This document shows, piece by piece, positions 2,458-44,737 of a DNA stretch of 64,000 nt; positions within the stretch are counted from its first letter, which is position 1; every line of letters starts with the position of its first letter. Location of the stretch: positions 11,655 through 75,654 of IMG/VR virus record IMGVR_UViG_3300005805_000074. One strand, 5' to 3'. Position numbers and translations under genes: made by a program. Source of the stretch: a virus. Taxonomy: Duplodnaviria > Caudoviricetes. The notes below the pieces were generated by a model that saw only the letters and a program-made list of their open reading frames with translations, was not told the origin of the DNA and did no database searches.

Positions 2458-3243
2458 CTATATAACAACATACTTTTCTACAAGTTCTTGGGGAAATAAA
2501 TGACGATTTTTCTCAATAAACTCATAATACGGTCTATATACTTCAGTTAATCCCATGTCGTTTAGTAATGGTCTTTTAGCGTAATCCAATGACGCTTTCT
2601 TATGGTTCTCAAAATTATTAGGATTGTTGATATCCCCACTCTGTTTATGACCTGCCCACTCTGGAGGGTCGGACCAATTAAAACAGTACGAAGGTACATA
2701 GTATGAATTGTGTTCATCTAATTGTCGTTCATCTCGTAGTTTGGTATACCAACTAAGCCCCTCATATCCTGTCAAATCTGTTCTAAATCCAATTTCTCGT
2801 ATTCTATTAATCTTAACAATGACACTAGCTTCTAATGTATTTTTTACAAGATGAATTCCCACTTTGTTCGCAAAAAAACTATATTCGGGTTTCCATGCAT
2901 CCTTTCCGTTTACTATTATTCCATCGTATGCTTGCCGCATATGCCACGGAAGATAAATGTCATCATCATCTGCTAACATAAAATAGTCACCTGTTGCGTG
3001 TGTGACGGCATCCCGACAAATCTGACCACGATTTTCATACGGATTTCCGGTCTGATAGTCCGTGTTGTTGTTTACTACGATAATATCATCGGCAGGGAAC
3101 CCCAATTCCATCGGGTGTTCTGTGTCTGTATTAAAGATAATCAGTTCTTTGTTCTGATGTTTCTGCGCATAAAACTGTGCTATGATTCGTTCTACACAAC
3201 TAAATCTACGATATGTGGTACAAACAAAACTTATTTTATTCAT
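2458..3243 (-). CDS. Glycosyltransferase family 2 (GT-A)
   Basis: ISFVCTTYRR N-terminus, NRGQICRDAV, FMLADDDDIYLP DxD motif. Confidence 0.85.
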   Translation of the reverse strand: MNKISFVCTTYRRFSCVERIIAQFYAQKHQNKELIIFNTDTEHPMELGFPADDIIVVNNNTDYQTGNPYENRGQICRDAVTHATGDYFMLADDDDIYLPWHMRQAYDGIIVNGKDAWKPEYSFFANKVGIHLVKNTLEASVIVKINRIREIGFRTDLTGYEGLSWYTKLRDERQLDEHNSYYVPSYCFNWSDPPEWAGHKQSGDINNPNNFENHKKASLDYAKRPLLNDMGLTEVYRPYYEFIEKNRHLFPQELVEKYVVI

Positions 3244-3244
3244 A

Positions 3245-3814
3245 TTATAATTTCCACACTACATCTTCACCTTCGGTTATCAAAGTGTATCCCTTCAATT
3301 GTAAACGAGAAAATGTCTGAACTAATTCTTCTTTTGGACAATGTGTTGTTTCAAATTCGATTTGTATAGGATATATGGTAGAATCAAGAATGCTATTTAC
3401 TACAATACAATCGTGTCCTTCGGTATCTATCTTAACCAAGTTTACAGATTCAATTTGATATCTTTTTGTGAGGGTGGTCCATGTAATGGCTTCTATTTTA
3501 TGATTAGTTAACATTCCTGTGTCTAACATCATTTGTGCTTCACTGTGTCCTCTGTGCGGTTTAATAATTGTCCCCCACCCTTTAGTAAAACTCAAATTAT
3601 ATTTATCCTGATTATGAGGTTCTACCCAAAATAAATCTACCATTTTATCTTCAGAAGAAATGGCAACATTAACTTTTGTAACATTTGGTTTATTCGGTAA
3701 TCTATCTAAATAGGTTTTGATTGGTTCTACTGACAATCCTATCTGGTTAGGAGAACATCCCTCTAGTAAAGTATGGTAATCACAAGTACCTATTTCAACG
3801 AAATCATATTTCAT
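3245..3814 (-). CDS. FkbM-like SAM-dependent methyltransferase
   Basis: DFVEIGT, SVEPI, NVAIS and VKIDTEGHD motifs. The ATG at 3814 overlaps the upstream TGA (ATGA). Confidence 0.7.
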   Translation of the reverse strand: MKYDFVEIGTCDYHTLLEGCSPNQIGLSVEPIKTYLDRLPNKPNVTKVNVAISSEDKMVDLFWVEPHNQDKYNLSFTKGWGTIIKPHRGHSEAQMMLDTGMLTNHKIEAITWTTLTKRYQIESVNLVKIDTEGHDCIVVNSILDSTIYPIQIEFETTHCPKEELVQTFSRLQLKGYTLITEGEDVVWKL

Positions 3815-4749
3815 AATAAGCAACTATTTTTTGAAGTTTGAATTATTTCTTCTACATACTTAATTGTTCCTCGTTTATTATCATAATCTTCCAATTTTAC
3901 ATCATATGGTAGTTTATTTTGATACATTCCTTTAAAAAATAACCGCTCCTTTATATTACCCACAACCCCCGCATTGTGGAATATAGTACACTTATCCCAC
4001 ATATCAGTTCCTTGTGTGGGCCATGCAAATTCCATTTCTGGAACCACTTTAACGGTATGACCAAAATACCATGCATTCCACAATACTGCCCACATATCTG
4101 CGGTCCACATTTGAATCGGATGATATTCTGGCGTTTGTGGATGTTCTTTGAGATGTTCTAAGAAATATTTGTACAATTCTTCGCTATCTTGTTCTACTTT
4201 ATCCCAATATTTGGCATCAATATTTTTCATAATATATTGTGCCCCACCACTATTCAATTCATTTTCTTCAGGTATACTTGGGTCAAGTCCAATGATTTCA
4301 CACATCCGTTCATAGATACCAAACTTCTTACTCTTGATATAGTCAGCACTGATATAGAATCTGGTATCGCTAAGGTACCACACATCGTCATCTAAAAATT
4401 TATCCCAATCTGGTTTTTTCGTAAAGATGATATCACAATCGTGATAGAATATTGCTTCATTTTTCATGTATGGATGTGCCATAAAATGCTGTTTTAATAT
4501 GTTCGGCCGAACGGATGAGATATATTTTGGATTTTGTCTTTCATCATTATAAAAGAAAAACCTGATATTATCATGAACCTCTGCTAATTTTTTCCAATTA
4601 TCAGGTATGTGATTATTTTTTATTGCACAAACTATGTCAATATTATTAGGATTAATTCCGTACTTTTTGAAATTATGTATCATAACTTCCACCTGCCAAG
4701 TATAGTAATCTATCGCAGGTTGAACACACATATACCTAAGATTTTTCAT
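3811..4749 (-). CDS. GT-A glycosyltransferase-like protein resembling plant peptide O-glycosyltransferases (GT95/GT96-like)
   Basis: FYHDCDIIF DxD motif, SGGAQYIMK and WTADMWAVLWNA, similar to the W..EMY motif of HPAT/SGT1-type enzymes; by-eye similarity only. Confidence 0.5.
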   Translation of the reverse strand: MKNLRYMCVQPAIDYYTWQVEVMIHNFKKYGINPNNIDIVCAIKNNHIPDNWKKLAEVHDNIRFFFYNDERQNPKYISSVRPNILKQHFMAHPYMKNEAIFYHDCDIIFTKKPDWDKFLDDDVWYLSDTRFYISADYIKSKKFGIYERMCEIIGLDPSIPEENELNSGGAQYIMKNIDAKYWDKVEQDSEELYKYFLEHLKEHPQTPEYHPIQMWTADMWAVLWNAWYFGHTVKVVPEMEFAWPTQGTDMWDKCTIFHNAGVVGNIKERLFFKGMYQNKLPYDVKLEDYDNKRGTIKYVEEIIQTSKNSCLL

Positions 4750-4752
4750 ATA

Positions 4753-6642
4753 TCATCCCTCTATTTCTTTTGTTGAAATATCTTCTTTATAAACTTGACT
4801 AATTTTGGACACAAATTCCTTAAAATAGGATTTGGAACGTTCGGGGGTGACCAATGCCCCGTCCACCACCAAATCTGCGACCTTTTGTTTCTCTTTGAGG
4901 ATATCACGCATATATTCGTCAATCGTATCCGCACATAACATATAATAAACTTGGACTTGACTCTTTTGACCGATACGATGGGTACGGTCCTCTGCTTGTT
5001 CGTGGTTCGCTGGAACCCAGTCACAATTCAAGAACACCACGGTATCTATCTGCTTCTGCAATCCGTCAATACCCATACCTGCCGCCATCAAACTGAATAG
5101 TCCGACCTTGGCTTCTCCGTTGGTTAATCGGTCAATAGACTTCTGACGCTCTTTACTATTCATTTCACCCGTAAGTAATGCAGACTTTTCTCCATAGTGT
5201 TCTTGAAGAAATTTTAATGGAGCGAGATAATTACTGAAAATGAGAATGGGTTTATCGTTATCTAAGAACTCGTCCACCATTTCGACCAACCGTGGCATCT
5301 TCTTTTCAATGAGAAATTCTTGAATTTTCGGCATGTGACCGATGGTAGGTTTCTCAACCTTCCACCGACCAAACACTTCTCGTAACATTTCTTTGTACTG
5401 CTTCTGTTCGTCTTTCGTTAATTCTACATACAAGTCATTTCGTTGTTTAGCTGGAAGTTCCGTCAAGATTTGTTCTTTCTTACGGCGGATGACCAAATCT
5501 TTCGTTCTATCATGCAAGTCTTGAAGGTTACGGGGAGCCTCACCCTTCCATCCCCCGTATCGTTGGGTAAAATGGAAGAAGTTGTTGAAACGGTCTTTGT
5601 CGAGGAAGTTTAACAAAGCAAATGCTTCGATAGGACGGGACATGACGGGAGTACCTGTGAGGAAGAGACAGTACTTGGTTTTGATACCCGGATATTTTCT
5701 CCGTTCCTTATATGACCCTAGGATACTCTTTGCTCGTATGGTTTGTCGGTTTTTGAGATAGGTAGCTTCATCACACACTAATAGGTCGAACTCTTGCTTC
5801 CGTAAATCATTAACAACTTTACCCACAGCATCGTAATGAACGATGTGGAATTGGTTCTTTAACTTCCCATCATAACTCTTACTATCCCAAATGGTAGAAT
5901 CTTTATCCGTGAACTTTTTGATTTCACGTTGCCAATTGACTACTACTGATAGGGGGCAGACGATGATTGTTTTTAAATTCTTATGTTGTGCGAATCCGAT
6001 TGCTTGAGCGGTCTTACCCAACCCAGGCGCGTCGGCGATGAGACACCGACCATCTGCTCGTTCCACAAACTTGACACCAACTTTCTGATAGGGATACAGT
6101 TGAAGTTGCATTCCGTCAATATCAAACTCTACATCTTCCTTGACTCGAATCTCGTCCAAATCCTCTCTACGGTCTTTTAACTTTTCCAGTAGGTTCAATA
6201 CCTTTTCGTCACACTTGACATTTGCTGGACCAAAAACATTAAATGCTTTCGGAAGATGAACCGCTGGAAACTCCCACCACTTCTCATCCCCATTCCATTT
6301 TCGTCCATCTACCTCGTATTTGAACTTTGCCATCAAGTTAGGATTATATGGCATGACAACAACCGCAGTTTTACTATCCTTTAAGTGAATAGAAACTGTG
6401 GTGTCTGTAGAAACTTGTGGTGTGAATTTGGAAGTCGGATTATTCGTCTTTGCGATTTTGAGGTGGGAAATGTCCTCACCTTTCAATGTGAGTGTTGCCG
6501 CTTCTTTCCAGATGTCAGGTATCCCAACGGTTTGTGTCATCCATTGAAGGTATGACTGATTGTTGTAGTATACATGAGCTAGTGAATAACCTTTAAACTT
6601 TCCGAATGTCAGTATTGCTTGTTCAGCTGACTGATGTATCAT
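4753..6642 (-). CDS. SNF2-family helicase with HARP-like N-terminal domain (SMARCAL1-like)
   Basis: LYPYQKVG, DAPGLGKT Walker A, CDEAT Walker B, LTGTP, QAEDRTHRIGQ; N-terminal LTFGKFKG motif and PYNPNL...RKWN...KWWEF HARP-like segment. Confidence 0.92.
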   Translation of the reverse strand: MIHQSAEQAILTFGKFKGYSLAHVYYNNQSYLQWMTQTVGIPDIWKEAATLTLKGEDISHLKIAKTNNPTSKFTPQVSTDTTVSIHLKDSKTAVVVMPYNPNLMAKFKYEVDGRKWNGDEKWWEFPAVHLPKAFNVFGPANVKCDEKVLNLLEKLKDRREDLDEIRVKEDVEFDIDGMQLQLYPYQKVGVKFVERADGRCLIADAPGLGKTAQAIGFAQHKNLKTIIVCPLSVVVNWQREIKKFTDKDSTIWDSKSYDGKLKNQFHIVHYDAVGKVVNDLRKQEFDLLVCDEATYLKNRQTIRAKSILGSYKERRKYPGIKTKYCLFLTGTPVMSRPIEAFALLNFLDKDRFNNFFHFTQRYGGWKGEAPRNLQDLHDRTKDLVIRRKKEQILTELPAKQRNDLYVELTKDEQKQYKEMLREVFGRWKVEKPTIGHMPKIQEFLIEKKMPRLVEMVDEFLDNDKPILIFSNYLAPLKFLQEHYGEKSALLTGEMNSKERQKSIDRLTNGEAKVGLFSLMAAGMGIDGLQKQIDTVVFLNCDWVPANHEQAEDRTHRIGQKSQVQVYYMLCADTIDEYMRDILKEKQKVADLVVDGALVTPERSKSYFKEFVSKISQVYKEDISTKEIEG

Positions 6643-6850
6643 TTGATTGTTCTGTTTTGATATAGGTAAATGTTCCTACATCTAATCTCCACCCATCATT
6701 TGGGTCTAACTTCAATACTCGCATTATTTCTTCGTTTGCAACTAATACCTTGTTTGTTAACTCAGCTTGGTATTGTTTTAATAATTGATTATTACTTTCA
6801 ATTAAATGTTGTAATGCAAGTGGTACTGGAACCGTTGTTACTTCTGTCAT
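6623..6850 (-). CDS. Hypothetical protein (75 aa)
   Basis: Clean ORF with GGGG SD, overlapping the helicase start, downstream of a sigma70-like promoter. Confidence 0.65.
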   Translation of the reverse strand: MTEVTTVPVPLALQHLIESNNQLLKQYQAELTNKVLVANEEIMRVLKLDPNDGWRLDVGTFTYIKTEQSNDTSVS

Positions 6851-6880
6851 ATATGCCCCATGTTTATAAAGTTTAGATTA

Positions 6881-6908
6881 AATATAATAAATTTATTGTA
6901 TTTGTCAA
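6881..6908 (-). promoter_or_regulatory. Putative sigma70-type promoter (TTGACA-N16-TATATT)
   Basis: Perfect -35 at 6903-6908 on the minus strand, with TATATT after 16 nt, upstream of the 75-aa ORF and helicase. Confidence 0.5.
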
Positions 6909-7930
6909 CACCCAGCTAATCCCGTATAGGAAAGACCACCACTTACAGATACTACACAAGTAATATCTTCTGTTTCATTGACGCATCCACTCTCATCAAC
7001 ATATGTGGATTGTGCGTATTCTCTAGTGATTGGGTCACCAGCCAATTGATAAGCCGGAATGGTAAGGGTAATATCGTTGTTTCCAACTCCTGACTTGTTG
7101 TATCTGATGACTACATCAACTGCTGTTCCACCATTGGTAATATTATTTCCGTATTGGTCCTTCAATAATATACTGGTAGTATTTCTTGCTTCTGGGTATG
7201 AACCACACGGAGATGGAGCAGTTCCATTACTGGTATTGGTATCAGATATTGCTACCGACGTTGCTACTGGAGCCGCCGTGGTTGTGGTAGTAGTCGTGGT
7301 CGGGGCTACAGTTGTAGTGGTAGTAGTTGTGCTAGTTGTGGGGGTTCCATCCCATATACAAATACCATAGGTTGGGTCTGTTGGGTCGCAGGTGTAACCC
7401 GAGCAACAGTTAGGTGATGCATTCAAGCATACATCACCCTCACCAATACACGCCGCTGTAGTTGTAGTAGTTGTTGGTGCTTCTGTAGTTGTAGTAGTAG
7501 TTGGTGCTTCTGTCGTTGTAGTAGTTGTTGGTGCTTCTGTTGTTGTAGTTGTAGTGGTGGTTGGTGCCCCTGTAGTGGTCGTGGTAGTGGTTGATGTTGT
7601 CGTGGTTGTACATGGTGAAGGAATAGTACTTGGACAGGTAACAAATTGTCCAGGTGGACATCCATCTCCTATTTGTAAACATACTTTAGCATATGTTGGT
7701 GTTACAAAAGATAACAAATTAGGACACTCAATATATCCCGCAGGACAATCTGCAGTAGAATACGATGTTCCAGGATCACCTTGTGGGCCTGGGTACGCTG
7801 CTGTTGGTGCGTATGATGCACTTAATACTCTAGTATTAGCAGACGCCGGATTACTTGCAGTAATGGCAGTTAGTGCAAATGACGAACTGAGTACGGTTAC
7901 ACCTTTTTCAAATGGGTAAAAATATGTCAT
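6905..7930 (-). CDS. Thr-rich mucin-like, Cys-rich putative virion protein with a knottin-pattern motif
   Basis: EAPTTTTTT repeats, short Gly-X-Y stretch PGPQGDPG, C-x6-C-x6-CC-x4-C-x9-C motif. Confidence 0.7.
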   Translation of the reverse strand: MTYFYPFEKGVTVLSSSFALTAITASNPASANTRVLSASYAPTAAYPGPQGDPGTSYSTADCPAGYIECPNLLSFVTPTYAKVCLQIGDGCPPGQFVTCPSTIPSPCTTTTTSTTTTTTTGAPTTTTTTTTEAPTTTTTTEAPTTTTTTEAPTTTTTTAACIGEGDVCLNASPNCCSGYTCDPTDPTYGICIWDGTPTTSTTTTTTTVAPTTTTTTTTAAPVATSVAISDTNTSNGTAPSPCGSYPEARNTTSILLKDQYGNNITNGGTAVDVVIRYNKSGVGNNDITLTIPAYQLAGDPITREYAQSTYVDESGCVNETEDITCVVSVSGGLSYTGLAGC

Positions 7931-8160
7931 GTATTAGAACTCGTTACCTGGTGAGCACTTGTACAATTCCCCTGCAAATTGTACACAAATACATCCCGTT
8001 GGACAAAGAGTATACTCTGGTCCACACGGTCCACCACATACTGGAGCGGTTGTTGTAGTTGTGGTGGTTGGTGACGCTGTTGTTGTAGTAGTGGTAGTAG
8101 TAGTAGTTGGTGCTTGTGTTGTTGTGGTAGTAGTTGATGTAGTGGTTGTTGTAGTAGTAG
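7255..8160 (-). repeat. Poly-Thr coding microsatellite-like tracts (ACN repeats), approx. 7255-7340, 7455-7610 and 8045-8160
   Basis: gtt/gta/gtg runs on the plus strand encode T5-T9 tracts punctuated by AP/EAP; boundaries approximate. Confidence 0.85.
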
Positions 8161-8359
8161 AACCACCACAAACTATTAAAGAACTAGATAATAAATATAT
8201 AGTCCCACCACTTGTTCCTGTGTCTCCCTTAGACCCCGTTGGGAATAATCCATGTGATGCTGTGGCAACCGTTCCCACGATGTATGATGCGGTAACGGCA
8301 TTACTTGCAGTAATTGATATATCTGCGAATACTGGGTATCCAAGTGGATAAAATTTCAT
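7934..8359 (-). CDS. Thr-rich, Cys-rich small putative virion protein
   Basis: MKFYPLG start, TGSKGDTG, poly-Thr linker, C-terminal CGGPCGPEYTLCPTGCICVQFAGELYKC. Confidence 0.7.
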   Translation of the reverse strand: MKFYPLGYPVFADISITASNAVTASYIVGTVATASHGLFPTGSKGDTGTSGGTIYLLSSSLIVCGGSTTTTTTTSTTTTTTQAPTTTTTTTTTTASPTTTTTTTAPVCGGPCGPEYTLCPTGCICVQFAGELYKCSPGNEF

Positions 8360-8361
8360 GG

Positions 8362-8565
8362 TTAACAGGTAGGTGGATAAGTGTCATAAGGTCCAACAGT
8401 AGTACTAGGAGTACCGTTATCTCCCGGAGGCCCCTTACTACCAGAAATAGCGTATGAGGCAGAGAGTGTTCTTAGTCCATATTCTGCAGTAAATGAATAG
8501 TTAGCACCAGAACCCGTGATAGTTTTTTCAAATTTTGAAGCAGACCCAAATGGATAAAATCTCAT
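8362..8565 (-). CDS. Small paralogue of the FYP-motif family (67 aa)
   Basis: MRFYPFG start, SASYA and GSKGPPGDNG motifs shared with the two neighbours. Confidence 0.7.
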   Translation of the reverse strand: MRFYPFGSASKFEKTITGSGANYSFTAEYGLRTLSASYAISGSKGPPGDNGTPSTTVGPYDTYPPTC

Positions 8566-8566
8566 A

Positions 8567-9367
8567 TCAATTCTCTAGTGGATATATCTGCACGGAAGCG
8601 TAAATATTACTTTGTACGGACGGAGATGTATTTTCTAGTATATATCCAACACGATTACTTCCAACGGGATATGTTTCTAGATTGTACGCTTGTAATACTG
8701 GAGTAATTCTATATAAATATGATGCACTATCGTATAACAAGTCACAAATTATAGATGACCCTGTTGCTGATGCGGTATCAAATTTTCTATTTTTTTCTGA
8801 GTTTGGAATGTCGCTAATAGGTCTAGAATATAATCTTAGTCGTACACTTGAACTTTCCGAATATGACCCAATAATCAAAAACGATTTTGGACTTGCAATA
8901 TTTCCCGAACTTGTTGCAAATCCAGCTAAATTTACTCCAGGATACGCGGGAATATTGATAAATGTTCTACTAGATGTGTTTAATTCTATTGGATAATACT
9001 CTATTGATAATTCATTGTTTACACTGTTTTCTATATTATACCATGTGTTATTTTCATTACCATGACTAGTAGCTATAATTGGTGGGGTAAATTCAATAAA
9101 TCTATCCCCAGAGGTTAGTCCGGCATCTAAATTTAAAGCAACAGATGCACTATAATCAAACGAACTAGTAGATCTTGCGGAATCAATAGATACACTTCCC
9201 GATGTACCATATAACCGAACTCTACAATCTTGTGATGACGAAATGTTTAATAAAATATATGATGCCCCTAAATACACACTTCCTTGTGTACTTGGGGTAG
9301 TGCTTGATACTGTTACTACTTTTCGTGTAAATCTAGACCCACTTTGTATTTGTTCTATTAGTCCCAT
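8567..9367 (-). CDS. Hypothetical Ser-rich putative virion protein with a two-fold internal repeat
   Basis: SYILL...CRVRLYG and SFLII...SVRLRLYS halves; SD GAGG; late-type motif upstream. Confidence 0.65.
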   Translation of the reverse strand: MGLIEQIQSGSRFTRKVVTVSSTTPSTQGSVYLGASYILLNISSSQDCRVRLYGTSGSVSIDSARSTSSFDYSASVALNLDAGLTSGDRFIEFTPPIIATSHGNENNTWYNIENSVNNELSIEYYPIELNTSSRTFINIPAYPGVNLAGFATSSGNIASPKSFLIIGSYSESSSVRLRLYSRPISDIPNSEKNRKFDTASATGSSIICDLLYDSASYLYRITPVLQAYNLETYPVGSNRVGYILENTSPSVQSNIYASVQIYPLEN

Positions 9368-9672: not shown

Positions 9673-10353
9673 TTATACGGAATATTGTAATGAGTAATTA
9701 TATACTTTATAATCGTCATAGAACAAATATTCTATCATTTTTATAAATTTACCGTCATTCATGTCTAGGTGTTCTAGATGTTTCTTTTTTATATTTCCTA
9801 TTTTTTGTATTTTCGATGTATCTATTCCGAAAGTTTGCTGTAACCACATATTGAACTTATTTAAATTTTCATAATAAAACCAGGTCATTTTTGGATGATA
9901 TGCCCAATGTACTTGTGTTTTAAAAAACGCATCATAATATGCGGTGTAGTCTACACCAAATATTTGTTTAAACGATAAATTATTTCGAGGAACACAGTTT
10001 GTATGGAAATTATCATATATAAATTCCACTAATCTATCAATATTGTCGAGTGGTAATTTACCTGGATGGTTAATACAATCTAAAGTACTACATTCAGAAT
10101 TTATATCTGCCAAATGATTTAAAGCAGAAATAAATCTTGTAACGGGATGACGAACTATTGTAAATCCAGAATAGTTTTTGTTATGATGGGTATATAGTTG
10201 TTCAAATGTAAAATGAAAATGTAATGAATAATCTTTACTTTCAATATTTTCACCATTGCGAGAAACTAATATTTTTGAATAGGCTCTAGTTCCAGTTTTT
10301 GGAATTTTTACCCAAATCCATTTAGAATCATTAATTTTAGAAGATATTATCAT
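9673..10353 (-). CDS. Sulfotransferase family 2-like protein
   Basis: WVKIPKTGTRA (5'-PSB loop) and FTIVRHPVTRFISA (3'-PB) motifs. Confidence 0.75.
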   Translation of the reverse strand: MIISSKINDSKWIWVKIPKTGTRAYSKILVSRNGENIESKDYSLHFHFTFEQLYTHHNKNYSGFTIVRHPVTRFISALNHLADINSECSTLDCINHPGKLPLDNIDRLVEFIYDNFHTNCVPRNNLSFKQIFGVDYTAYYDAFFKTQVHWAYHPKMTWFYYENLNKFNMWLQQTFGIDTSKIQKIGNIKKKHLEHLDMNDGKFIKMIEYLFYDDYKVYNYSLQYSV

Positions 10354-11056
10354 TTTCTAACCGCCATATTATATTATCGGCAATTACTCTGTGACAAGTT
10401 TTGGACGGGTGATAATCTTTTCTTGGTTTTTTAAAATTGGCATAATCTGTAGCTATAGTCAATTCTGGTCTTGAATTTTCTTCTGGTCTTTTTTGTAATG
10501 GAATATCCTGTAAATTTGCAATACATTCAAATGTTTCGTCTTTATATTTTAAACGAATTAAATTATTGAATGACCATGTACAACTCTTTACGGTTTCTAA
10601 CGTGTCTTCCGGCCATTGAAGTATATACACTGGGAACTTATGTGTATAACTTTCTAAAAATTTTAATACTGATAATGTATCTTCTGTTTTATTTTGTTCT
10701 ATATATTCGTCTAATGTGACATTATTTTTTTCTAACCATTCTTTTAAATAAGCATTATGACGATGATTCATTAAATCAATATGGGAAACATTAGGTAGAA
10801 TTTTACTATCACTTCTAGCCCATCTAGTTAATTGAAATACAAAAACATCCACACTATTATTTTTTAGATATTCTTCCCACCAAGATATAATCTTCGTATG
10901 AGAACCACCACGAAATGACTGATTTATAGTGTTAACATTAAAATGATTACCAACTAGAGTAGAAAATCTACTTAATGTATTCGTACCGTCATAATACTCT
11001 AGACCGTCACCATATGTAAATGAACATCCTGCAAACCCAATATTTTTATCTAACAT
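10337..11056 (-). CDS. SGNH/GDSL-fold protein
   Basis: AGCSFTYGDG block I, RGGS block II, DYHPSKTCHRVIAD block V; start placed at ATG 11056. Confidence 0.65.
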   Translation of the reverse strand: MLDKNIGFAGCSFTYGDGLEYYDGTNTLSRFSTLVGNHFNVNTINQSFRGGSHTKIISWWEEYLKNNSVDVFVFQLTRWARSDSKILPNVSHIDLMNHRHNAYLKEWLEKNNVTLDEYIEQNKTEDTLSVLKFLESYTHKFPVYILQWPEDTLETVKSCTWSFNNLIRLKYKDETFECIANLQDIPLQKRPEENSRPELTIATDYANFKKPRKDYHPSKTCHRVIADNIIWRLENDNIF

Positions 11057-11057
11057 T

Positions 11058-12572
11058 TTAGCAACAGAATCCTCCACAACAAAATCCACCCTTACCACAG
11101 TCTCCATTATAATAACAAGCAAGAGTTACAAGAAGAACAGTATTTTCATTTTCATCTAAAGTAAGATACTGTTCTGACTCTATTTCATCTAGTTCAGTTG
11201 CTGCTGTTTCGTACACTCCTATGACATAATGACTATAATATTTGTTGTTATTGTTATCAGTGGATGTAATTTGTAAACGATATTTTCCAACTTCCACAGT
11301 TTCATCTGGAGATACCGACACAGTAAGTGTTCCGTCTACATATGATGCAGTTATCCACGGAAATGCTTTATAAAAAATATTTGGGTCTTCATATGTAGTT
11401 GCATCAATATATTCTGCATTTGATATACTATTTATTGCACTAAATGTTAAAGTACTGGTGGTGTTTCTTTGTACTGGAAATAAAGTACCTACTGGCGTAT
11501 TCCAAATTAATCTGTTTCCTAAATATAATGTTTTAATAAGTCTGTTTGGAGTAGTGTTATAAATAGTTTCGTTACGGAACAACATATCTTCCGATGCGTT
11601 GTTTAATACTAATGTTTGTATTTGTTGTGCAGATAAAGTAGGGTTATCAACAATATATTGTGAAACCACACCAGATACTATGGCCGCGGCCACAGAAGTT
11701 CCTGAGATAGTTTCATATGTGTTGAATCGATTTGCCACAAGTACATTGATACCAGGTGCGGTAATATCCACTTCCGAACCCCAATTACTTATTCCCACTC
11801 CACCAGGCACCCACGATACCACTCGGTCGTATGCGTCTGATGCAGCAACGCCTAACACAGTATCCAACCCTACAGGTGATAATGTATCTGCATCAATACC
11901 AGTGTTACCTGCCGCGGCAACAACAACTAATCCGGCGTTTTGTAATTCTGTAATTTTAGTATCTAGTAACCTACTCTTTGGTACAGTCCATGAACAATTA
12001 ACAACTTTTATACCTGGAGTTTGTAAATGGTCTGCAAGAACCGCGTCAAACGCCTTTAATAGTTCACCAACTGTGGTAGATTCTAGTGGAATTTTTACAT
12101 TCTTAACAATTGCATTTTTTGCCACACCAACGGTTTTACCATTAATTAAACTGGCCATAGAAGTACCGTGTCCTACTATATCAGTGTAAAACCCGTCGTG
12201 AGAATATAAATGCACTACTGTAGATTCAGAAAATTCATCCACACTTACATCTATACCAGAGTCCATGAGATACACAACACAACCATCACCATAATTTACT
12301 GGATTGTAGGTTTGACGCATAGGAAGTGTTGGGGATACTAATCGTAACAGATGCCACGAAGAATGTGGTGTTACTGTTATGCCCTCATCTACTTCAACAA
12401 AAACAACTCCCGAAATAGCTTCGATGGTAGAACTTTCCACCTCATCGGACACTTCTAGTCCAATAACATTAAGACTTTGTAATGTGTAAACAACCGTTCC
12501 GTGTGTACTTAATGTTGTAGTTAGTATCTCAACATTGGTATCAGGAGAATATGAAATATTAAAGGTTTTCAT
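11058..12572 (-). CDS. Subtilisin-like S8 serine protease with a propeptide and a Cys-rich C-terminal tail
   Basis: Catalytic triad motifs YLMDSGID, GHGTSMAS and SGTSVAA; AAAGN oxyanion motif; I9-like N-terminus. Confidence 0.92.
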   Translation of the reverse strand: MKTFNISYSPDTNVEILTTTLSTHGTVVYTLQSLNVIGLEVSDEVESSTIEAISGVVFVEVDEGITVTPHSSWHLLRLVSPTLPMRQTYNPVNYGDGCVVYLMDSGIDVSVDEFSESTVVHLYSHDGFYTDIVGHGTSMASLINGKTVGVAKNAIVKNVKIPLESTTVGELLKAFDAVLADHLQTPGIKVVNCSWTVPKSRLLDTKITELQNAGLVVVAAAGNTGIDADTLSPVGLDTVLGVAASDAYDRVVSWVPGGVGISNWGSEVDITAPGINVLVANRFNTYETISGTSVAAAIVSGVVSQYIVDNPTLSAQQIQTLVLNNASEDMLFRNETIYNTTPNRLIKTLYLGNRLIWNTPVGTLFPVQRNTTSTLTFSAINSISNAEYIDATTYEDPNIFYKAFPWITASYVDGTLTVSVSPDETVEVGKYRLQITSTDNNNNKYYSHYVIGVYETAATELDEIESEQYLTLDENENTVLLVTLACYYNGDCGKGGFCCGGFCC

Positions 12573-12592
12573 GAACTATTCCTAAAAATGGG

Positions 12593-13162: not shown

Positions 13163-13176
13163 AGTATAAATATCAG

Positions 13177-13947: not shown

Positions 13948-14168
13948 AATACCGTCCTGTCGTTTTTTAATCCGTATCGTATCCAGTTATACCATACTCG
14001 TTCGTGTATAAAGTAAATCAAGGGTTTTATTATTAATTCAATAAAACCCATACTACCAGCTATAGTTAAATTTCTAGTAAATATATACGAAATTACCACC
14101 GTTGTCAAGGTACCTAGTATTCTATATGTAACTGTCTTTGCGATGTGTCGTTTTATATGTAAAGTCAT
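13944..14168 (-). CDS. DUF2061-like small membrane protein
   Basis: RHIAKTVTYRILGT ... YFIHERVWYNWIRYG. Confidence 0.8.
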   Translation of the reverse strand: MTLHIKRHIAKTVTYRILGTLTTVVISYIFTRNLTIAGSMGFIELIIKPLIYFIHERVWYNWIRYGLKNDRTVL

Positions 14169-14794: not shown

Positions 14795-14800
14795 TTGTGT

Positions 14801-15580: not shown

Positions 15581-15582
15581 AA

Positions 15583-20027: not shown

Positions 20028-20034
20028 AAATTTC

Positions 20035-22373: not shown

Positions 22374-22374
22374 A

Positions 22375-24462: not shown

Positions 24463-24468
24463 AACTAC

Positions 24469-24603: not shown

Positions 24604-24607
24604 CTCC

Positions 24608-25723: not shown

Positions 25724-25727
25724 TTTA

Positions 25728-37639: not shown

Positions 37640-39062
37640 TTAGAACCTCAAACAAATTTTTAATAAAAAACTCTTTCATTAACTTCCCATCTGCGTATGT
37701 TAAGAATAATTTTTGATTATATACTAGTACATCTTCAAAAATAGAGTGATACCAGTTATGAATTTCTTCTAATGAAAATTTAGACAATCTTTCTATTTCA
37801 TTTATTATCATTTTGAATCGTTCTGCACCATTTTCTTCATCATCATAACTTTCATCAATAAACGGAGAAAATGTCTTAAATCCAAACCGTTTGATTTCTT
37901 TAAGTCCATGCGCTGGTCCCATAAAAATAAACGGTTGTAGATGACCTATTGGTTTCCATGTCTTTTCAGAAAAATAACCACCGTTCTCAAAAAAGTTAGT
38001 TTCTGATGTTATGTGTATGTAGGATTGTAAATATATTCTTTTGTTTTCGAAATTAAATCCCCACACATTTTCTAAATTGTCATAATCTAATGTACTGACG
38101 GGTTTATTTTGTTTTAAATTTTGGTACTCAGCTTCTATCGTAACGAATGGGAATTTATCTCCAATATGATGTACGGAATACATTGATTGGTCTAAATCAA
38201 ACATTTTCATAGAATCTAAGTCATATGATACAAAAAAGTTATCAATAATGTTTAAATGATTAAACATCAGAACAGAATATAAACGATGTGGTCGCATCCG
38301 TCTATTTAACATTAAAAACTTTTTCTGTCTTACGATTTTATCAGTAACTTCTTCCTTAGAAACTACACTACAGACATTAGAAATATTATTAAATGTAGTG
38401 ACTTGATTGTTTAATATTTTTCTAAACTCTTCGGCTTTGTCTTTCAACGACCAAATATGATACAATAATTTAATCTTACCTACATTTTTATTTTCATTAT
38501 ATGGCCGTTTTGTAAATGCATCATACCATATATCAAAAGTTTTTTTGATATTATAATCAGATATACAGAATATAATTTTTTCAAATGGTATATTAAATTC
38601 TTCTGCGTCTTTATATATAACTTCAAAAAACTCTGTGTTTAGTGTTCCTTCGTTTGAATAATTTATAAAAAGATAAAAGTTTTCAATTGTCCTAATTAAA
38701 TGTTTTGTTCGTTCTGGTATAAAAAAGAAGAACGACCTATGCATATGTAGACTATTATGCAATCCAAATGTACAACTTGCTCCACCAAACGGAGACATTA
38801 AATACAAATATATAGCCTCTTTTTGGTAGTTGTTTGAAGAAACATCGTAAGTAGATATTCTACCATTAAGAGCATATTCTACTGTACCTTGCCCGTGCCA
38901 AACTGCTACACCATCATAATACTTGTTTTGTAACTTTGATATAATACCGTTTTCTCTATTAAAATCTTCTTCTATATGAGACTGGAAGTAATCAAAATTT
39001 AAACAATTTTCTAATGGTCCCGCGGGAGATATGTAATCGTCAACTAAAAATACATTTTTCAT
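37626..39062 (-). CDS. Glycosyltransferase-like protein (GT10-like motif family)
   Basis: KKFLMLNRRMRPHR, SYIHITSETNF...FSEKTWKPI...QPFIFMG...GFKTFSPFIDESYD. Confidence 0.55.
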   Translation of the reverse strand: MKNVFLVDDYISPAGPLENCLNFDYFQSHIEEDFNRENGIISKLQNKYYDGVAVWHGQGTVEYALNGRISTYDVSSNNYQKEAIYLYLMSPFGGASCTFGLHNSLHMHRSFFFFIPERTKHLIRTIENFYLFINYSNEGTLNTEFFEVIYKDAEEFNIPFEKIIFCISDYNIKKTFDIWYDAFTKRPYNENKNVGKIKLLYHIWSLKDKAEEFRKILNNQVTTFNNISNVCSVVSKEEVTDKIVRQKKFLMLNRRMRPHRLYSVLMFNHLNIIDNFFVSYDLDSMKMFDLDQSMYSVHHIGDKFPFVTIEAEYQNLKQNKPVSTLDYDNLENVWGFNFENKRIYLQSYIHITSETNFFENGGYFSEKTWKPIGHLQPFIFMGPAHGLKEIKRFGFKTFSPFIDESYDDEENGAERFKMIINEIERLSKFSLEEIHNWYHSIFEDVLVYNQKLFLTYADGKLMKEFFIKNLFEVLNVNT

Positions 39063-40432
39063 ACATTTATTGTTTGTAAAAATTTATTTTTAATACTACC
39101 ATTTCTGAAAAAGTCGGTTAGTAAATTTCTGTTGTGTAATAATTTACCTTGTACTGAGTTATACAAACGATGTAACTCTTCAATAGACAGATTACATACT
39201 CGTTCTACATTATTTAGAATCATAGATAATCGTTCTACTTCATTTTCAATTGTATCATAACTTTCATCAAAAAACTCTGGGAATGTTTCAAAACCTAATT
39301 TACGTAGTTCTGATAAAGTGTTTGGATTACCGTAAACTATAAATGGGTGAAAATATATCATAGGTCTTATAGTTTTTTCAGTAATAAATATTGCCCCACC
39401 ACTTACACCCGTTTCATTTACAACAGAAAAATATGTATCATTCCACATATCTTTTTCTGTAAAATAGTTGTGCATATTAGCCACTTCTGTTGCATCTTCG
39501 TAGTCTATAACGAATGGATATTTCTCTTTAATTTTTAGTTTATACTCAATATTTTCTGGTACTTCACAAAAATCATCAAACTCAGTTGACCTAAGTAAAG
39601 AGATTAGTCCTTTATCAAACAAACCTCGTTCTATTAAGTTCAATATCATTCTTGGTCTATGTAATCTGTTACTATTTCTGTTTAGACAAAGAAAATGTTT
39701 GTTTCTAGTGTGTGATATTGGTTTTACATCTAACGAATATTTAATATTGCGTTCAATCACATTATTTACTTCGTAATTGTTAGTCATACTTTCATACTTA
39801 AGAATATTTTTTCCAGGTTCTCCTTCAACAAAAAAATTAATTGATTCACATAACATAAACGAAGTTAAATTATATTTTCTTAAGTAGTTGTCATAGATTT
39901 GTTTAATATTAGATGTATTTGTTACAAATACTACTTTTTTATTACTAATTTTATGTTTCTCAACAAAATTGTAGATATTTCTAAAAAAGTCATCAGAATA
40001 CTCTAAACAACCTTCTTTATCGTCTATAAACAATACTTTTACACTATCATAATTCTTTAGTAGTTTAAATGATTTTTTACTTAGAATATTATCTAAATCC
40101 ACCCTTGAAATATAATCTACTATAGTTTGGTCAAATGTACTGGCGATAGCAAATATATTAATGTCATTTTCTAGTTGTTCATTAGACAAATTATGTACCA
40201 ACACCCTGTCTGTGTTACTTACATATTCGGATATTAAATGAAATATATCTAGTGTCGTTTTAGATATACGAAAACTAGAATTATCTATCATTCGTAGTGT
40301 AACATCGTCCATATCCACCAAACCATCATTTATTTCACTAAACAATATTGGTATATCTTTTAATTGATACCCTAATGGGAGATATCCGTTCGGAGTTAAA
40401 AATTCATATAAAAAATTTACTTTAGTCTTCAT
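39059..40432 (-). CDS. Glycosyltransferase-like protein (GT10-like motif family)
   Basis: KHFLCLNRNSNRLHR, YFSVVNET...FITEKTIRPM...HPFIVYG...LGFETF..FFDESYD. Confidence 0.55.
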   Translation of the reverse strand: MKTKVNFLYEFLTPNGYLPLGYQLKDIPILFSEINDGLVDMDDVTLRMIDNSSFRISKTTLDIFHLISEYVSNTDRVLVHNLSNEQLENDINIFAIASTFDQTIVDYISRVDLDNILSKKSFKLLKNYDSVKVLFIDDKEGCLEYSDDFFRNIYNFVEKHKISNKKVVFVTNTSNIKQIYDNYLRKYNLTSFMLCESINFFVEGEPGKNILKYESMTNNYEVNNVIERNIKYSLDVKPISHTRNKHFLCLNRNSNRLHRPRMILNLIERGLFDKGLISLLRSTEFDDFCEVPENIEYKLKIKEKYPFVIDYEDATEVANMHNYFTEKDMWNDTYFSVVNETGVSGGAIFITEKTIRPMIYFHPFIVYGNPNTLSELRKLGFETFPEFFDESYDTIENEVERLSMILNNVERVCNLSIEELHRLYNSVQGKLLHNRNLLTDFFRNGSIKNKFLQTINV

Positions 40433-41870: not shown

Positions 41871-41871
41871 G

Positions 41872-42504
41872 TTATTTATATCCTATTGTCATAAATCTGT
41901 AGAATGGTTTATTTGGTCCCATACATTTCAATTTATTCGTAAACACGATATTTTTCAATGTACTATTATTATTGAATTCTTCTAAGGTTTCAAAACATCT
42001 CACATGCTCTTGACATTCATAAAAATTGTTTCCCTGTATAACTACAGGAGTTCCTACTGGTATGTTTTTTAACCACATATCATATACATCTTGTGTAACG
42101 TGTTCAGTACTAGTATTAATTACTAGATTTGGTTCAATATAGTTATTAAATCTTGCCATATCTTCGGTAATAAAGTTTATTCTAGAATCATTATTAGATA
42201 ACATATTACCATATATAATACAACTGTCATCGATGTCAATATTGTATACTGATGTGGGAAAATTATCTACTATAAGTTGTGACAATATTCCATACCACCC
42301 ACCAATAACATAAACATTACCTGATAATGTTGGTATATGTTTTTTTATATTATTTATCAGCCACGATTTACTACGAAGTTGACTATCCCAAAAACTCTCT
42401 AAGATTCTATATTGTATTTCTTTATTACAATTTCTTATTATATTCATCCACTGAACGACACGGGATGATTTTATAGGTAATACATCATCCATATGTTTCT
42501 TCAA
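41872..42504 (-). CDS. Class I SAM-dependent methyltransferase-like protein
   Basis: VYVIGGWYG motif I, NIDID, VINTSTEH. Confidence 0.65.
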   Translation of the reverse strand: MKKHMDDVLPIKSSRVVQWMNIIRNCNKEIQYRILESFWDSQLRSKSWLINNIKKHIPTLSGNVYVIGGWYGILSQLIVDNFPTSVYNIDIDDSCIIYGNMLSNNDSRINFITEDMARFNNYIEPNLVINTSTEHVTQDVYDMWLKNIPVGTPVVIQGNNFYECQEHVRCFETLEEFNNNSTLKNIVFTNKLKCMGPNKPFYRFMTIGYK

Positions 42505-43594
42505 AATGTTGTTCTAACCAAGTCCAACTGACCGTATTCCGAAGTGCTTCTGGGTTCTTTTCGTGTTGTTGTGCGTATTCATGTCCATCCTTTGCACCCT
42601 TCAATACCCACTCAGCATTTTCTCCTTCCGCAAACGCCAACCATCGTTGTAACCAGAGATGAGCATCGGTTGAGTGTTGTAAGGTTAACTTGACCGTTTC
42701 ACGGAATGCGGTTCTCCATGCCTCATATGGACTTGTAGCAAAATGAGCTTCACTCACTGTACGTGGAATAGAAACCGTCTTACTGTATTGAGTAAAGTCC
42801 AGTCCGAAATTTGTTGGTGTATTCAATACAAGATTGGTGTTATAACAGACGATTCCCATATGCCCATATTCTAAACGATTACTCATATTCTTGGCTTGGA
42901 ATACTACATGAGCATCGGGAATAGTTTCTACCGGATAATTAAATACGGTTACATCCGTTACATAATTTTTACCAGTGACCACAAAGAATTGATTCTTATC
43001 TCCGGCCAAATCTACGCAACGATGAAATACTTTTCTCCGTCCATCAATATTATCAATTCGTATTGCTTTAGGATAAATAGAACTCAAGTGCTTCCAATTT
43101 TTATCTGCATTTGTTTCGCCGTTACTAACAAAAAACACAGGAACTTCTGTCTGTTTTGGTTTACGGATAACGGAAACCGTTCGTACCGCCGAAGCAGGAT
43201 TGACTTCCACAATCATCTTTTCTGACCACTCCCACGGGTCATCACTTTCCTTCTTCATCTTTTCAATGATTTTCTTCTCTCCTGCCCATCCCGCGATAAA
43301 CACTTGTTCGGCATCCTTACGAACAACAAACACCACAGGACCAGAGATGTGTTCCCATGTTACTCCATTGGTACACCGATAGAGTTTCTTTTCTGCTAAC
43401 GGCGTATCAACAATCTGCACATAATCAAATACACTTAGTTCCTTTTCACCTGCCTGTGCCCACCCATCTGCGTCCTTGACCGTTTCCATATAGTCAGTAA
43501 ACCATCCAAGACTCCGTACCCACGGTTTGGTTTCTACAACCCAATACTTTTTAAATAAGTCACTATGGGCTAACCACGATTCATTATTAACCAT
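42485..43594 (-). CDS. Two-domain protein with a C-terminal GT-A-like domain
   Basis: VFFVSNGE.NAD.NW, FFVVTGKN, N.LEYGHMG, SPYEAWRTAFRE.VKL. Confidence 0.5.
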   Translation of the reverse strand: MVNNESWLAHSDLFKKYWVVETKPWVRSLGWFTDYMETVKDADGWAQAGEKELSVFDYVQIVDTPLAEKKLYRCTNGVTWEHISGPVVFVVRKDAEQVFIAGWAGEKKIIEKMKKESDDPWEWSEKMIVEVNPASAVRTVSVIRKPKQTEVPVFFVSNGETNADKNWKHLSSIYPKAIRIDNIDGRRKVFHRCVDLAGDKNQFFVVTGKNYVTDVTVFNYPVETIPDAHVVFQAKNMSNRLEYGHMGIVCYNTNLVLNTPTNFGLDFTQYSKTVSIPRTVSEAHFATSPYEAWRTAFRETVKLTLQHSTDAHLWLQRWLAFAEGENAEWVLKGAKDGHEYAQQHEKNPEALRNTVSWTWLEQHFEETYG

Positions 43595-44282
43595 TTTTCT
43601 TTACCTTTTTTGTATGTCTCTTAATTCTCTGTTCTTCATTTACACCTAAATTTGGACCAAATGCCCACTGTCCTACATGACGAACTTGGAAACTAAGGTT
43701 CATATCAACTAAAATCTTATATCCTGCATTTCTTAATTTACTTTGGAAAAAGAAATCTTCTCCGTGCCATTCCTTATCTTTATATTCAAATGCAAAGTAT
43801 GGAGGTACTATTTTATTTAGTACTTCGGTTTTCATCATCATACATCCCATTCCAATTCCTTCGACTTCTTGAAGTTCTTGGTCACCTTCTAACGGTAACC
43901 AATTTTCCCAATTACCTCGTTCTGGATACGCGACCGTTTGTAATGGTACCGACCGTTTCATGTAATTTGCACAGACTATATCTACATTATGTCCCATTAA
44001 TCGCATAGCTGTAGTGTTGGGGAACATCATATCAGAATCTAACCACAATGCATAGTCTGCCTTTATTTCTAATGCTTGTTGTGCGAGGCGTTCACGTTGT
44101 GTCAATAATATTGTACTTTGGTCATATATAACATGAACATCAATACCTGCCATGGTGGTAGTTTTCACCATTTCTACTAAACACGCAGTAAACAAACTAT
44201 ATGTGTACTCTCTACATGGTACTAAAATTGCTAATTTAGTAGGTTTGGTTTGCCAAATACTTAAATCGTAGATGTTCTTCAT
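43587..44282 (-). CDS. Glycosyltransferase family 2-like (GT-A)
   Basis: AILVP, RERLA..A, LWLDSDMMFP, GMGCMMMK, GEDFFF. Confidence 0.8.
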   Translation of the reverse strand: MKNIYDLSIWQTKPTKLAILVPCREYTYSLFTACLVEMVKTTTMAGIDVHVIYDQSTILLTQRERLAQQALEIKADYALWLDSDMMFPNTTAMRLMGHNVDIVCANYMKRSVPLQTVAYPERGNWENWLPLEGDQELQEVEGIGMGCMMMKTEVLNKIVPPYFAFEYKDKEWHGEDFFFQSKLRNAGYKILVDMNLSFQVRHVGQWAFGPNLGVNEEQRIKRHTKKVKKNG

Positions 44283-44737
44283 AACCCCGCCACCCCAGAA
44301 GCTAATGTAGCAGCTTGACTTGTAATTTCTCGAATCATTGTAGTGATTTCTTGTATTCTTTTTACAATTAGTTGATAATCCGCTAAAGGAAACTGAGTAA
44401 TTGTATTTAATGTTTCGATACTGTATTTATCGAATATAAGAATTTCCATCGCACCCTGACGTGCCCACTTTTCAATCATTGCAAATCTTGCTGTTTGTGG
44501 GTCGTTATTTAATAAATTTAACAGATGTTGTGGGTCGTGTTGAGCTAATACAGTTTCGAGAAATGTAATACGTTCAGGCCATTCACCCTTTTCTTTCAGA
44601 TATTGTAATTCGTATAACAATTCACAAAGAACTTTTTTGTCATAACCAATAGAAACCCATCGGACATACCTTTCTTCGTAGTCCGATGGGTTAGTGTTTA
44701 CTGCCGCTAATAATGTTTCGAATGTTATTTCACTCAT
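44279..44737 (-). CDS. Hypothetical protein
   Basis: Clean ORF with GGGG SD, first gene after a sigma70-like promoter. Confidence 0.7.
   Translation of the reverse strand: MSEITFETLLAAVNTNPSDYEERYVRWVSIGYDKKVLCELLYELQYLKEKGEWPERITFLETVLAQHDPQHLLNLLNNDPQTARFAMIEKWARQGAMEILIFDKYSIETLNTITQFPLADYQLIVKRIQEITTMIREITSQAATLASGVAGL

Follow-up and report, generated by a model that had tools for sequence, protein, structure and literature searches.

What does a tailed phage make with about 40 kb of sugar genes placed beside one of its fibre genes? To our knowledge, large glycan islands have been on record in myophages of marine and fresh waters for 15 years without their target ever having been established, modification of host lipopolysaccharide (LPS) being the default reading. 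The question is raised here by IMG/VR virus record IMGVR_UViG_3300005805_000074, a single viral contig of 75,654 bp in which a terminal repeat is absent; the window, that is, the whole stretch analyzed, comprises its bases 11655-75654 (64 kb). The island in question (2458-44737) consists of sugar-building and sugar-decorating genes over about 40 kb and adjoins a Ser/Thr-rich fibre gene. In agreement with the initial annotation of this DNA, which had described about 45 co-oriented and tightly packed genes, 45 minus-strand open reading frames (ORFs) of at least 80 aa were found in it, with few gaps and many overlaps; according to the ORF list the minus strand holds all credible genes of the window, and every feature given below lies on it. 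The island is very probably composite and hypervariable, and three layers can be distinguished in it with high confidence: a conserved fibre-linked module, a mobile cassette of about 16 kb, and lineage-specific tailoring genes. Its product, in the reading that we tentatively prefer, decorates the phage's own fibres.

A fibre-linked glycosyltransferase module in a composite island

The GT-A type glycosyltransferase (GT) encoded at 43587-44282 was used as a probe and recovered 80 IMG/VR loci, on contigs of up to 334 kb and with GT identities of 46-92%. A homologue of the 152-aa protein encoded by the first gene of the module (44279-44737) was found immediately upstream of the GT-A gene in all 80 loci, a homologue of the fibre 45007-48516 lay upstream of the 152-aa gene in 76 of them, and the 369-aa conserved protein encoded by the third module gene (42485-43594) followed GT-A in 43. 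The upstream fibre ORF carried an S74 cleavage motif and 25-51% Ser+Thr in about 40 of the 57 distinct ORFs that were readable. Downstream of the module the content varies, from nothing (a tail gene comes next) to cassettes with short-chain dehydrogenase/reductase (SDR), radical SAM and FamA genes, the last being the GT-B family described below; the order fibre, 152-aa gene, GT-A is kept even without any further sugar gene downstream. Searches of Pfam, PHROG and PDB profiles returned no match for the 152-aa protein, nor did a PDB profile search for the 369-aa family, which is represented by 106 metagenome clusters, none of them annotated. The predicted complex of GT-A with the 152-aa protein scored 0.00 and was counted neither way.

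The apparent gap of about 270 bp between the fibre gene and the 152-aa gene contains a small conserved ORF of 59 aa (44809-44988), present in the ORF list, which has a Shine-Dalgarno-like AGGAG and is kept in nine aligned loci; two short internal repeats are present in it. A CTTGACA box after this ORF is nearly invariant in nine aligned loci, and pattern scanning located a sigma70-like promoter (TTGACA-17 nt-TATATT; 44771-44799) 62 nt upstream of the 152-aa gene. All seven minus-strand matches to TTGACA-N16-18-TAnnnT fell within 6.9-44.8 kb, that is, with island or backbone genes, while the motif TATTTAT was located 15-50 nt upstream of structural gene starts in 12 of its 23 minus-strand occurrences (1.3 expected). 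Since the GT operon has its own sigma70-like promoter and the structural genes have TATTTAT instead, these sequence signals suggest that it is probably transcribed independently of the late genes.

Comparison of synteny with relatives, proposed in the initial annotation, brought out a hypervariable slot and a mobile cassette in addition to the conserved fibre-linked module. With the baseplate-hub protein as a probe, 80 IMG/VR loci were obtained, among them L003-L010. In distant relatives the sheath, tube and hub genes are contiguous (72 and 70 of the 80 loci), and a 35-kb part of the island is missing from L006, both of which bear out the claim of an insertion within the tail module. In the closest relatives (hub 65-75% identical) a SNF2 helicase gene (4753-6642), 87-92% identical and thus unusually strongly conserved for a tail-module helicase, directly adjoins the hub gene, and the genes of 2458-4749 do not lie between the two in L003-L010; for this reason, 2458-4749 is taken from the gene order as a separate three-gene insertion beside the baseplate-hub gene. 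The following stretch, 4753-9367, is a conserved backbone with SNF2 and Ser/Thr-rich proteins, homologues of the latter being found in L004-L006 and L010. In L006, the fibre C-terminus is followed by homologues of the Ser-rich protein 8567-9367 and of the poly-Thr protein, then by SNF2 and hub, the whole of 9673-44737 being missing, and L004 has five different genes in the same slot (DUF6445, GT17, two GT2 and a 2-oxoglutarate (2OG) oxygenase). Because of these two loci, the slot between fibre and hub is regarded, by comparative sequence, as a hypervariable glycan-gene site.

The gene order of the segment 28.3-44.7 kb is found again on three other contigs, one of 51.9 kb from JGI (66-97% identity), one of 324 kb from NCBI and one of 56 kb from ENA (the last two at 44-80% identity); on the latter two, the segment lies directly 3' of a fibre gene ending in an S74 domain. 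Judged from this recurrence, it is a mobile cassette, conserved and about 16 kb long. The tailoring half (9673-28298), in turn, had no counterpart in L003-L010 and, scattered paralogues aside, none in the cassette-bearing contigs either. Thus, the description of one glycan island holds for the glycan genes and fails for its uniformity, since a SNF2 helicase, an S8 protease and three Ser/Thr-rich proteins lie inside. The conserved GT module that is linked to the fibre and has a promoter of its own, the mobile cassette of 16 kb, an unannotated viral GT-B family, and the complement of sulfation and carbamoylation genes in this lineage appear to be new.

Glycosyltransferase families of the island

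About ten GT-like proteins had been listed initially, of which eight are supported: five GT-B proteins of family FamA, one GT8-like GT-A, one A197/Anp1-like GT-A, and one weak GT2-like protein (2458-3243; Pfam GT2, 1.6e-4). The FamA paralogues (at 16537, 24608, 32445, 37626 and 39059) were recognized by all-against-all BLAST. Their homologues occupy more than 160 metagenomic clusters without annotation in any, and none was found among 50,697 GenBank phage records. No Pfam family was matched by any paralogue at E ≤0.01, and a PDB profile search with FamA gave nothing meaningful. Structure prediction, also proposed initially, was informative: the AlphaFold2 model of member 39059-40432 (pLDDT 93.6) matched solely GT-B glycosyltransferases in Foldseek and, because of this, FamA is assigned on its predicted fold to the GT-B glycosyltransferases. 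The top VIA-align Z scores were tied (WlaC-like 6eji, 11.4; T4 beta-glucosyltransferase (BGT), 11.1; a Rickettsia GT, 11.1), and the GT10-type enzymes were tied with other GT-B enzymes as well (H. pylori alpha-1,3-fucosyltransferase, 10.6; FUT9, 10.5). As regards CAZy family GT10, therefore, the GT-B fold is present, Pfam Glyco_transf_10 is absent, and structural scores are tied across GT-B. The best matches in BFVD were uncharacterized proteins of uncultured Caudovirales and one protein of the Mimivirus group.

The product of 3811-4749 (312 aa) has more than 2,600 homologue clusters, and its AlphaFold2 model (pLDDT 96) aligned with LgtC (Z 14.2, root-mean-square deviation 3.7, 241 aa), glycogenin (Z 14.1) and Skp1 alpha-galactosyltransferase (Z 14.1), with WbbM and UGGT matched too. 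Its DxD residues D104 and D106 are invariant in 50 homologues, and the model identifies it as a GT8-type GT-A. At the sequence level, neither Pfam Glyco_transf_8 nor any other family was matched (0 families), so that membership in GT8 is not supported by sequence; among the homologues, weak Stealth_CR2 matches were found in 5 of 50 and nothing else in Pfam. Similarity to HPAT was limited to PF23452 on 10% of the members of one neighbouring ESM-Atlas cluster, with no direct HPAT match in Pfam and no HPAT structure among the fold matches. The gene was absent from the four related IMG/VR records searched. Its relatives lie directly after the major tail protein gene in siphophages of Enterococcus, Lactobacillus, Lactococcus and Staphylococcus (e.g., phiFL1A gp51). 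The corresponding family, phrog_4417, is an unannotated GT8-like GT-A whose gene comes immediately 3' of that for the major tail protein in 77 phage records of GenBank, and its protein is a candidate tail-tube glycosyltransferase in culturable phages, including Enterococcus phage phiFL1A (gp51, L086).

For the fibre-linked GT-A (43587-44282), Pfam Anp1 was matched below the family cut-off (4e-6), and a 22-sequence profile run against PDB retrieved A197 of Sulfolobus turreted icosahedral virus (STIV; E 5.5e-5) and Mnn9 (2e-3); together with synteny, these matches point to an A197/Anp1/Mnn9-like GT-A. The motif D82-S83-D84 is invariant in the alignment. A 39.7-kb podovirus has a relative of 38% identity, encoded between its capsid and tail-tubular-protein genes. 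STIV A197 (PDB 2c0n), the closest solved relative by sequence, is likewise a viral GT-A with a DxD motif, although the virus is archaeal, the similarity is remote, and its acceptor is equally unproven. The capsid protein of STIV is glycosylated.

Possible targets of the glycan

The claim that the island product decorates the phage's own fibres is the one that we favour, with slightly less than even confidence. The proposed acceptor is the fibre 45007-48516, which has 139 proline-free collagen-like G-(T/S)-S triplets and 36.5% Ser+Thr; a second collagen-like fibre has 31%, and two poly-Thr proteins 33-38%, in accordance with the extreme Ser/Thr richness initially described for the flanking proteins. 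The Ser/Thr-rich proteins within 6905-9367 are possible acceptors as well. According to this proposal, the soluble island enzymes would act in the cytoplasm of the infected cell, converting host nucleoside diphosphate (NDP)-sugars, and a substituted O-glycan would be built on Ser/Thr of the collagen-like (G-T/S-S)n fibres and poly-Thr stalks, started by the fibre-linked GT-A and extended by the GT-B paralogues. The result would be akin to the exosporium nap formed by Bacillus BclA or to giant-virus fibrils, and might stabilize proline-free triple helices or else shield or tune adhesion. We favour fibre decoration because the order of fibre, 152-aa gene and GT-A is conserved across 76-80 of 80 loci, because two of the GTs have relatives encoded within structural operons of small phages, and because transmembrane (TM) proteins are absent while striking Ser/Thr-rich acceptor candidates are present. 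That both 2OG oxygenases are of the prolyl-hydroxylase type (P4H) argues in the same direction, as do the recurrence of the cassette, in order, directly 3' of an S74 fibre gene and the viral nature of the nearest solved GT-A relative by sequence.

Several observations weigh against this proposal, whose support comes entirely from gene neighbourhood and predicted fold. L006 keeps the fibre and poly-Thr genes without an adjacent GT. Collagen-like fibres and downstream sugar cassettes were distributed 28/2/2/16 among the 48 loci with enough flank, an association without statistical weight, since the fibre trait changes only twice on the GT tree (about two independent contrasts); this covariation was therefore dropped as evidence. 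The conserved sigma70-like promoter of the GT operon, as opposed to TATTTAT on the structural genes, points to expression at an earlier stage, which would fit modification of the host or of DNA no less well. In addition, the GTs that build O-antigen are likewise soluble peripheral enzymes, and consequently the lack of TM proteins leaves room for action on lipid-linked glycans of the host.

The last two points lead to remodelling of the host surface, in which the host's lipid-linked O-antigen or capsule units would be changed by soluble GTs and NDP-sugar enzymes during infection, so that superinfection is blocked or progeny are kept from sticking to debris; the linkage to the fibre would then mean that a receptor-binding protein and a receptor-modifying enzyme were selected together. 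We consider this explanation doubtful, though a serious contender. Islands that match in size and position in pelagimyophages and cyanophages have been read in this way (PMC7029224, PMC12801897), modification of the host O-chain being preferred for comparable islands (PMC7029224), and the relatives of the carbamoyltransferase are the "Nol-like" genes of P-SSM2, S-SSM7 and HTVC008M; the promoter also implies expression apart from the late structural genes. Nevertheless, no flippase, polymerase, transporter, polyprenyl-phosphate GT or TM protein was found in the island, the order fibre, 152-aa gene, GT persists without other sugar genes, and the relatives of two GTs are found in structural operons of 38-40 kb phages, by capsid or tail-tube genes, and not in lysogeny or early regions. 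The initial claim of a glycan coat on the phage's own fibres thus gains indirect support from the module order, from GTs in structural operons and from the lack of a transporter or membrane component, with the host surface as a less probable target.

A third explanation, hypermodification of DNA, is very improbable in our estimation. Here, the GT-B paralogues would glycosylate hydroxymethylated bases, as AGT/BGT of T4 and other phage GTs do, and the tailoring enzymes would decorate the sugar to evade restriction; DNA glycans of diverse kinds have been reported as products of phage GTs (Pyle 2024, as cited in PMC12619734). FamA has T4 BGT among its tied best fold matches (Z 11.1 vs. 11.4 for the top one), yet the GT-B fold is common at the same Z to dozens of non-DNA enzymes, and the SNF2 helicase, although located inside the block, is a backbone gene that relatives lacking the island have too. 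The island was found to contain no hydroxymethylase, base kinase or DNA-binding partner, a thymidylate-synthase-like hydroxymethylase was not among the window ORFs scanned with Pfam (64 kb of the 75.6-kb fragment), and the fixed place after the fibre gene would be left unexplained. Moreover, we know of no sulfation, carbamoylation or branched deoxysugars on DNA, which also counts against this explanation. It is improbable as well, albeit to a lesser degree, that there is no single pathway and that a recombination hotspot has gathered accessory genes that are unrelated and act on several targets, linkage to the fibre only marking a place where insertions are tolerated. Such a hotspot would agree with a composite block of at least two insertions plus backbone genes, with content that differs between close relatives, with a short, perhaps truncated DegT protein and with several ORFs without assignable function. 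On the other hand, genes are tightly packed, co-oriented and in many cases overlapping, and the order of a cassette of at least 12 genes is preserved in distant contigs at identities of 44-97%, which argues for selection on a joint product.

A wider proposal, which we advance with some reserve, is that of a modular, horizontally exchanged virion-glycosylation system in aquatic tailed phages, in which a conserved fibre-linked initiation module and interchangeable sugar cassettes, the unannotated viral GT-B family among their genes, would clothe fibres and stalks in sulfated, carbamoylated, branched deoxy-sugar glycans; with the same reserve, it might be a bacteriophage counterpart of the glycocalyces of giant-virus fibrils. 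The linkage of fibre, small ORF, promoter, 152-aa gene and GT-A over 80 diverse contigs, together with the relatives in structural operons, provides in fibre self-glycosylation a testable alternative to the default reading. If it holds, the adsorption, stability and antigenicity of phages in nature would hinge on a glycan coat that can be exchanged, a stabilizing partner would be found for proline-free collagen-like fibres, and three unannotated families (the viral GT-B family with its more than 160 clusters, the 369-aa and the 152-aa proteins) would acquire a role. If it does not, the module would still be a compact handle on how such islands remodel the host.

The island had also been proposed as an undescribed system, which is contradicted by the literature: virion glycosylation is known (PMC12619734), and the host recognition cluster (HRC) of pelagimyophages and cyanomyophages is a published hypervariable island of 34-45 kb in the structural module, with fibres and many GT/LPS genes (Zaragoza-Solas 2020, PMC7029224; Sullivan 2010, PMC3037559), read as host O-chain modification (PMC7029224), while "cell-wall modification" sets of cyanophages include up to 13 GTs (PMC12801897). 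Both the HRC and the present island are non-syntenic islands in the structural module of aquatic T4-like myoviruses that combine fibres with GT and sugar-nucleotide genes, and a Nol-like carbamoyltransferase and 2OG oxygenases are common to both. The present island lies inside the virion structural module, with capsid, sheath and tube genes upstream on its strand, adjoins S74/collagen fibres, and is non-syntenic between relatives with conserved flanks (L006, L004), as expected of an HRC; in contrast to the pelagimyophage HRC, which is placed between VrlC and gp14, no VrlC or gp14 family match flanks it, its slot being between tube/fibres and a gp26-like hub. It further differs in belonging, by capsid, to an immuto/RM378-like lineage, in a FamA GT-B that lacks homologues in the GenBank phage records searched, and in sulfotransferases and a fibre-linked GT module that are not described for the HRC.

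Other systems are more distant. Mycobacteriophages encode GTs that act in the cytoplasm on capsid and tail proteins of the phage itself and, as summarised in PMC12619734 and PMC11256854 (for Freeman 2023), few GTs, host sugars and the C-termini of capsid or tail-tube proteins are involved, whereas the present island, known from its genes alone, holds 35-40 kb of its own sugar synthesis and tailoring, with fibres as the presumed target. The fibril glycosylation clusters of Megavirinae/Mimivirus and the Mimivirus collagen GTs (PMC10117803, PMC9614988, PMC9546862) are similar in that a virus-encoded, clade-variable cluster of rare bacterial-type sugar and GT genes is tied to surface fibrils and collagen-like proteins, and one Mimivirus-group protein is among the best BFVD matches of FamA; they differ in belonging to eukaryotic viruses, in their gene set, and in glycans that were chemically determined, the present island being read from genes. 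The seroconversion systems (gtrABC, Oac) are defined by a membrane flippase and bactoprenol GT or by a membrane acyltransferase, which the island does not contain. Among cellular systems, BclA of Bacillus anthracis has collagen-like GXT repeats whose Thr residues are O-glycosylated with rhamnose-based oligosaccharides, with rml and GT genes adjacent. It belongs to a cellular spore coat and has GPT repeats, unlike the proline-free G-(T/S)-S of the present fibre.

Remaining island genes and structural surroundings

The NDP-sugar enzymes named initially (three SDRs, RmlC, a DegT-type protein and the alpha and beta subunits of a thiamine pyrophosphate (TPP)-dependent E1) were recovered by Pfam. 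Most belong to the cassette, which comprises TPP E1 beta (Transket_pyr, 28300), forming a split pair with TPP E1 alpha (E1_dh, 33617), a P4H-type 2OG oxygenase (28831), three extended SDRs (29493, 31493 and 34818), a sulfotransferase-like protein (30478; weak Pfam Sulfotransfer_1 and a motif resembling the 3'-phosphoadenosine 5'-phosphosulfate (PAPS) loop), RmlC (34262), PhyH (35788), a C-terminus of the arginine-deiminase (ADI) superfamily (36632), a twitch-domain radical SAM protein (40422; Pfam, and NCBIfam N_Twi_rSAM at 316 bits, above the cut-off) and a Rossmann-like protein (41872-42504), along with three FamA genes (32445, 37626 and 39059). Based on RmlC, the SDRs, split E1, PhyH, radical SAM, the ADI-like protein and three GT-B, the cassette would make and transfer a modified, probably branched 6-deoxyhexose. 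NCBIfam provided no equivalog-level name for the SDRs, DegT or E1 subunits, all scores being below cut-off, and hence the exact sugar is not nameable. The DegT-type protein (15921-16562), of only 213 aa, aligns to about residues 30-240 of 375-aa enzymes and, on account of this, may be truncated; without the C-terminal third of the fold, it may be inactive or repurposed.

In the tailoring half, which would serve the addition of carbamoyl, sulfate and methyl groups, perhaps also of acyl or amidino groups, and contains two more GT-B (16537 and 24608), Pfam and motif reading identified a Sulfotransfer_2 protein (9673) and a sulfotransferase-like protein (14165), both with a PAPS-loop-like motif, a PP-loop ATPase with an SGGxDS motif (12593-13162), a P-loop domain resembling adenosine 5'-phosphosulfate (APS) kinase fused to a cytidylyltransferase-like domain (13177), a P4H-type 2OG oxygenase (protein hydroxylase, 14801), a full NodU/CmcH-type carbamoyltransferase (20035; Pfam E 1e-61), Methyltransf_24 (25728), and an S8 protease (subtilase, 11058) that is not a glycan enzyme. 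Seven SGNH-like paralogues (10337, 17942, 18640, 26489 and 27381, in addition to the DUF6071/SGNH-like 21651 and 22375) have N-terminal GDS/GCS/NGS motifs and a Pfam match in only one (DUF6071); acylation is perhaps their role, by these motifs alone. Consequently, among the tailoring activities initially listed, sulfation, carbamoylation, methylation and hydroxylation (2OG/PhyH) are supported by Pfam, while acylation, suggested by the SGNH motifs only, and amidination are putative. About 20 island ORFs had no Pfam or PHROG match; in PHROGs, the sole match among the 20 ORFs lacking Pfam families was to phrog_4417, a family without an assigned function. No credible TM helix was detected among the island proteins, except in a questionable 113-aa ORF (15583-15924) overlapping the following gene, in which two hydrophobic segments are present, and therefore Wzx, Wzy, ABC transporters and polyprenyl-phosphate GTs are lacking.

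At the hub end, the three-gene insertion consists of the GT2-like gene, an FkbM methyltransferase (3245-3823; Pfam 9e-7) and the GT8-like gene. The backbone comprises the SNF2-family helicase, which is not a glycan gene (Pfam SNF2-rel_dom 3e-33 and Helicase_C), two stalk proteins in whose translations poly-Thr "TTTTTTEAP" stretches and Cys-rich knots were recognized (6905-7930 and 7934-8359), and a 266-aa protein that is Ser-rich and structural-like by composition (8567-9367). The "gap" 8360-8566 reads as coding, ends with TLSASYAISGSKGPPGDNGTPSTTVGPYDTYPPTC followed by a stop, and may be a third small fibre-like member with the SASYA motif beside the two stalk proteins.

Regarding the flanks, a fibre and a gp26-like hub had been named correctly: the fibre on the right (1169 aa) matched Pfam Collagen (7e-53) and a C-terminal Peptidase_S74 (1e-10), and the baseplate hub on the left (1645-2394) matched T4_baseplate (2.6e-13) and phrog_150, "baseplate hub". 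The third flanking assignment, a tape measure, was not corroborated, the 581-aa candidate having no family match. The hub ORF overlaps a 97-aa ORF (1455-1748) by about 100 nt, and the two are kept together in 74-80 of 80 loci. To the left of the hub gene lie three large ORFs without family, followed by replication genes for a DNA-polymerase-like protein, a single-stranded DNA-binding protein and UvsX. Pfam also identified the Gp23 major capsid protein (62643-63929), the tail sheath (57415-59748), the first of the two long collagen-repeat fibres (52917-56423), and a T7-tail-fibre-N protein. No tRNAs were found in the 64-kb window.

The capsid protein was 54% identical to that of Flavobacterium phage vB_FspM_immuto, 53% to those of Microcystis phage Mel-JY01 and a 484-kb uncultured phage, and 37% to that of Rhodothermus phage RM378, and megablast of 44 kb against GenBank phages retrieved no near relative, with only 188 bp at 73%. 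Given these capsid identities of 37-54% and the lack of near-identical GenBank phage DNA, the contig is assigned with high confidence to an uncultured, distantly T4-like myovirus, of which it is a fragment. The promoter 44771-44799 and those of the aligned loci L088-L124 have canonical TTGACA/TAnnnT boxes and not the Bacteroidota-type TTG...TAnnTTTG, which hints that the host is perhaps not a member of the Bacteroidota, although Flavobacterium is the host of the closest cultured relative by capsid.

The T4 late promoter TATAAATA was rejected as a signal of the structural genes, with 12 occurrences found and 12 expected (no enrichment). TATTTAT, located at 62548, 60081, 57394, 52910, 52266, 48553, 9415 and 2437, is a candidate for the late promoter in this group of phages. 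Lastly, a GC-rich hairpin followed by a T run, resembling an intrinsic terminator, is found both after the capsid gene (62517-62642; GGGTGGCCGAAAGGTCACCC-TTTTT) and after the tail-tube gene (56765-56867; CCTCACGGGAAACCGTGGGG-TTTTT).

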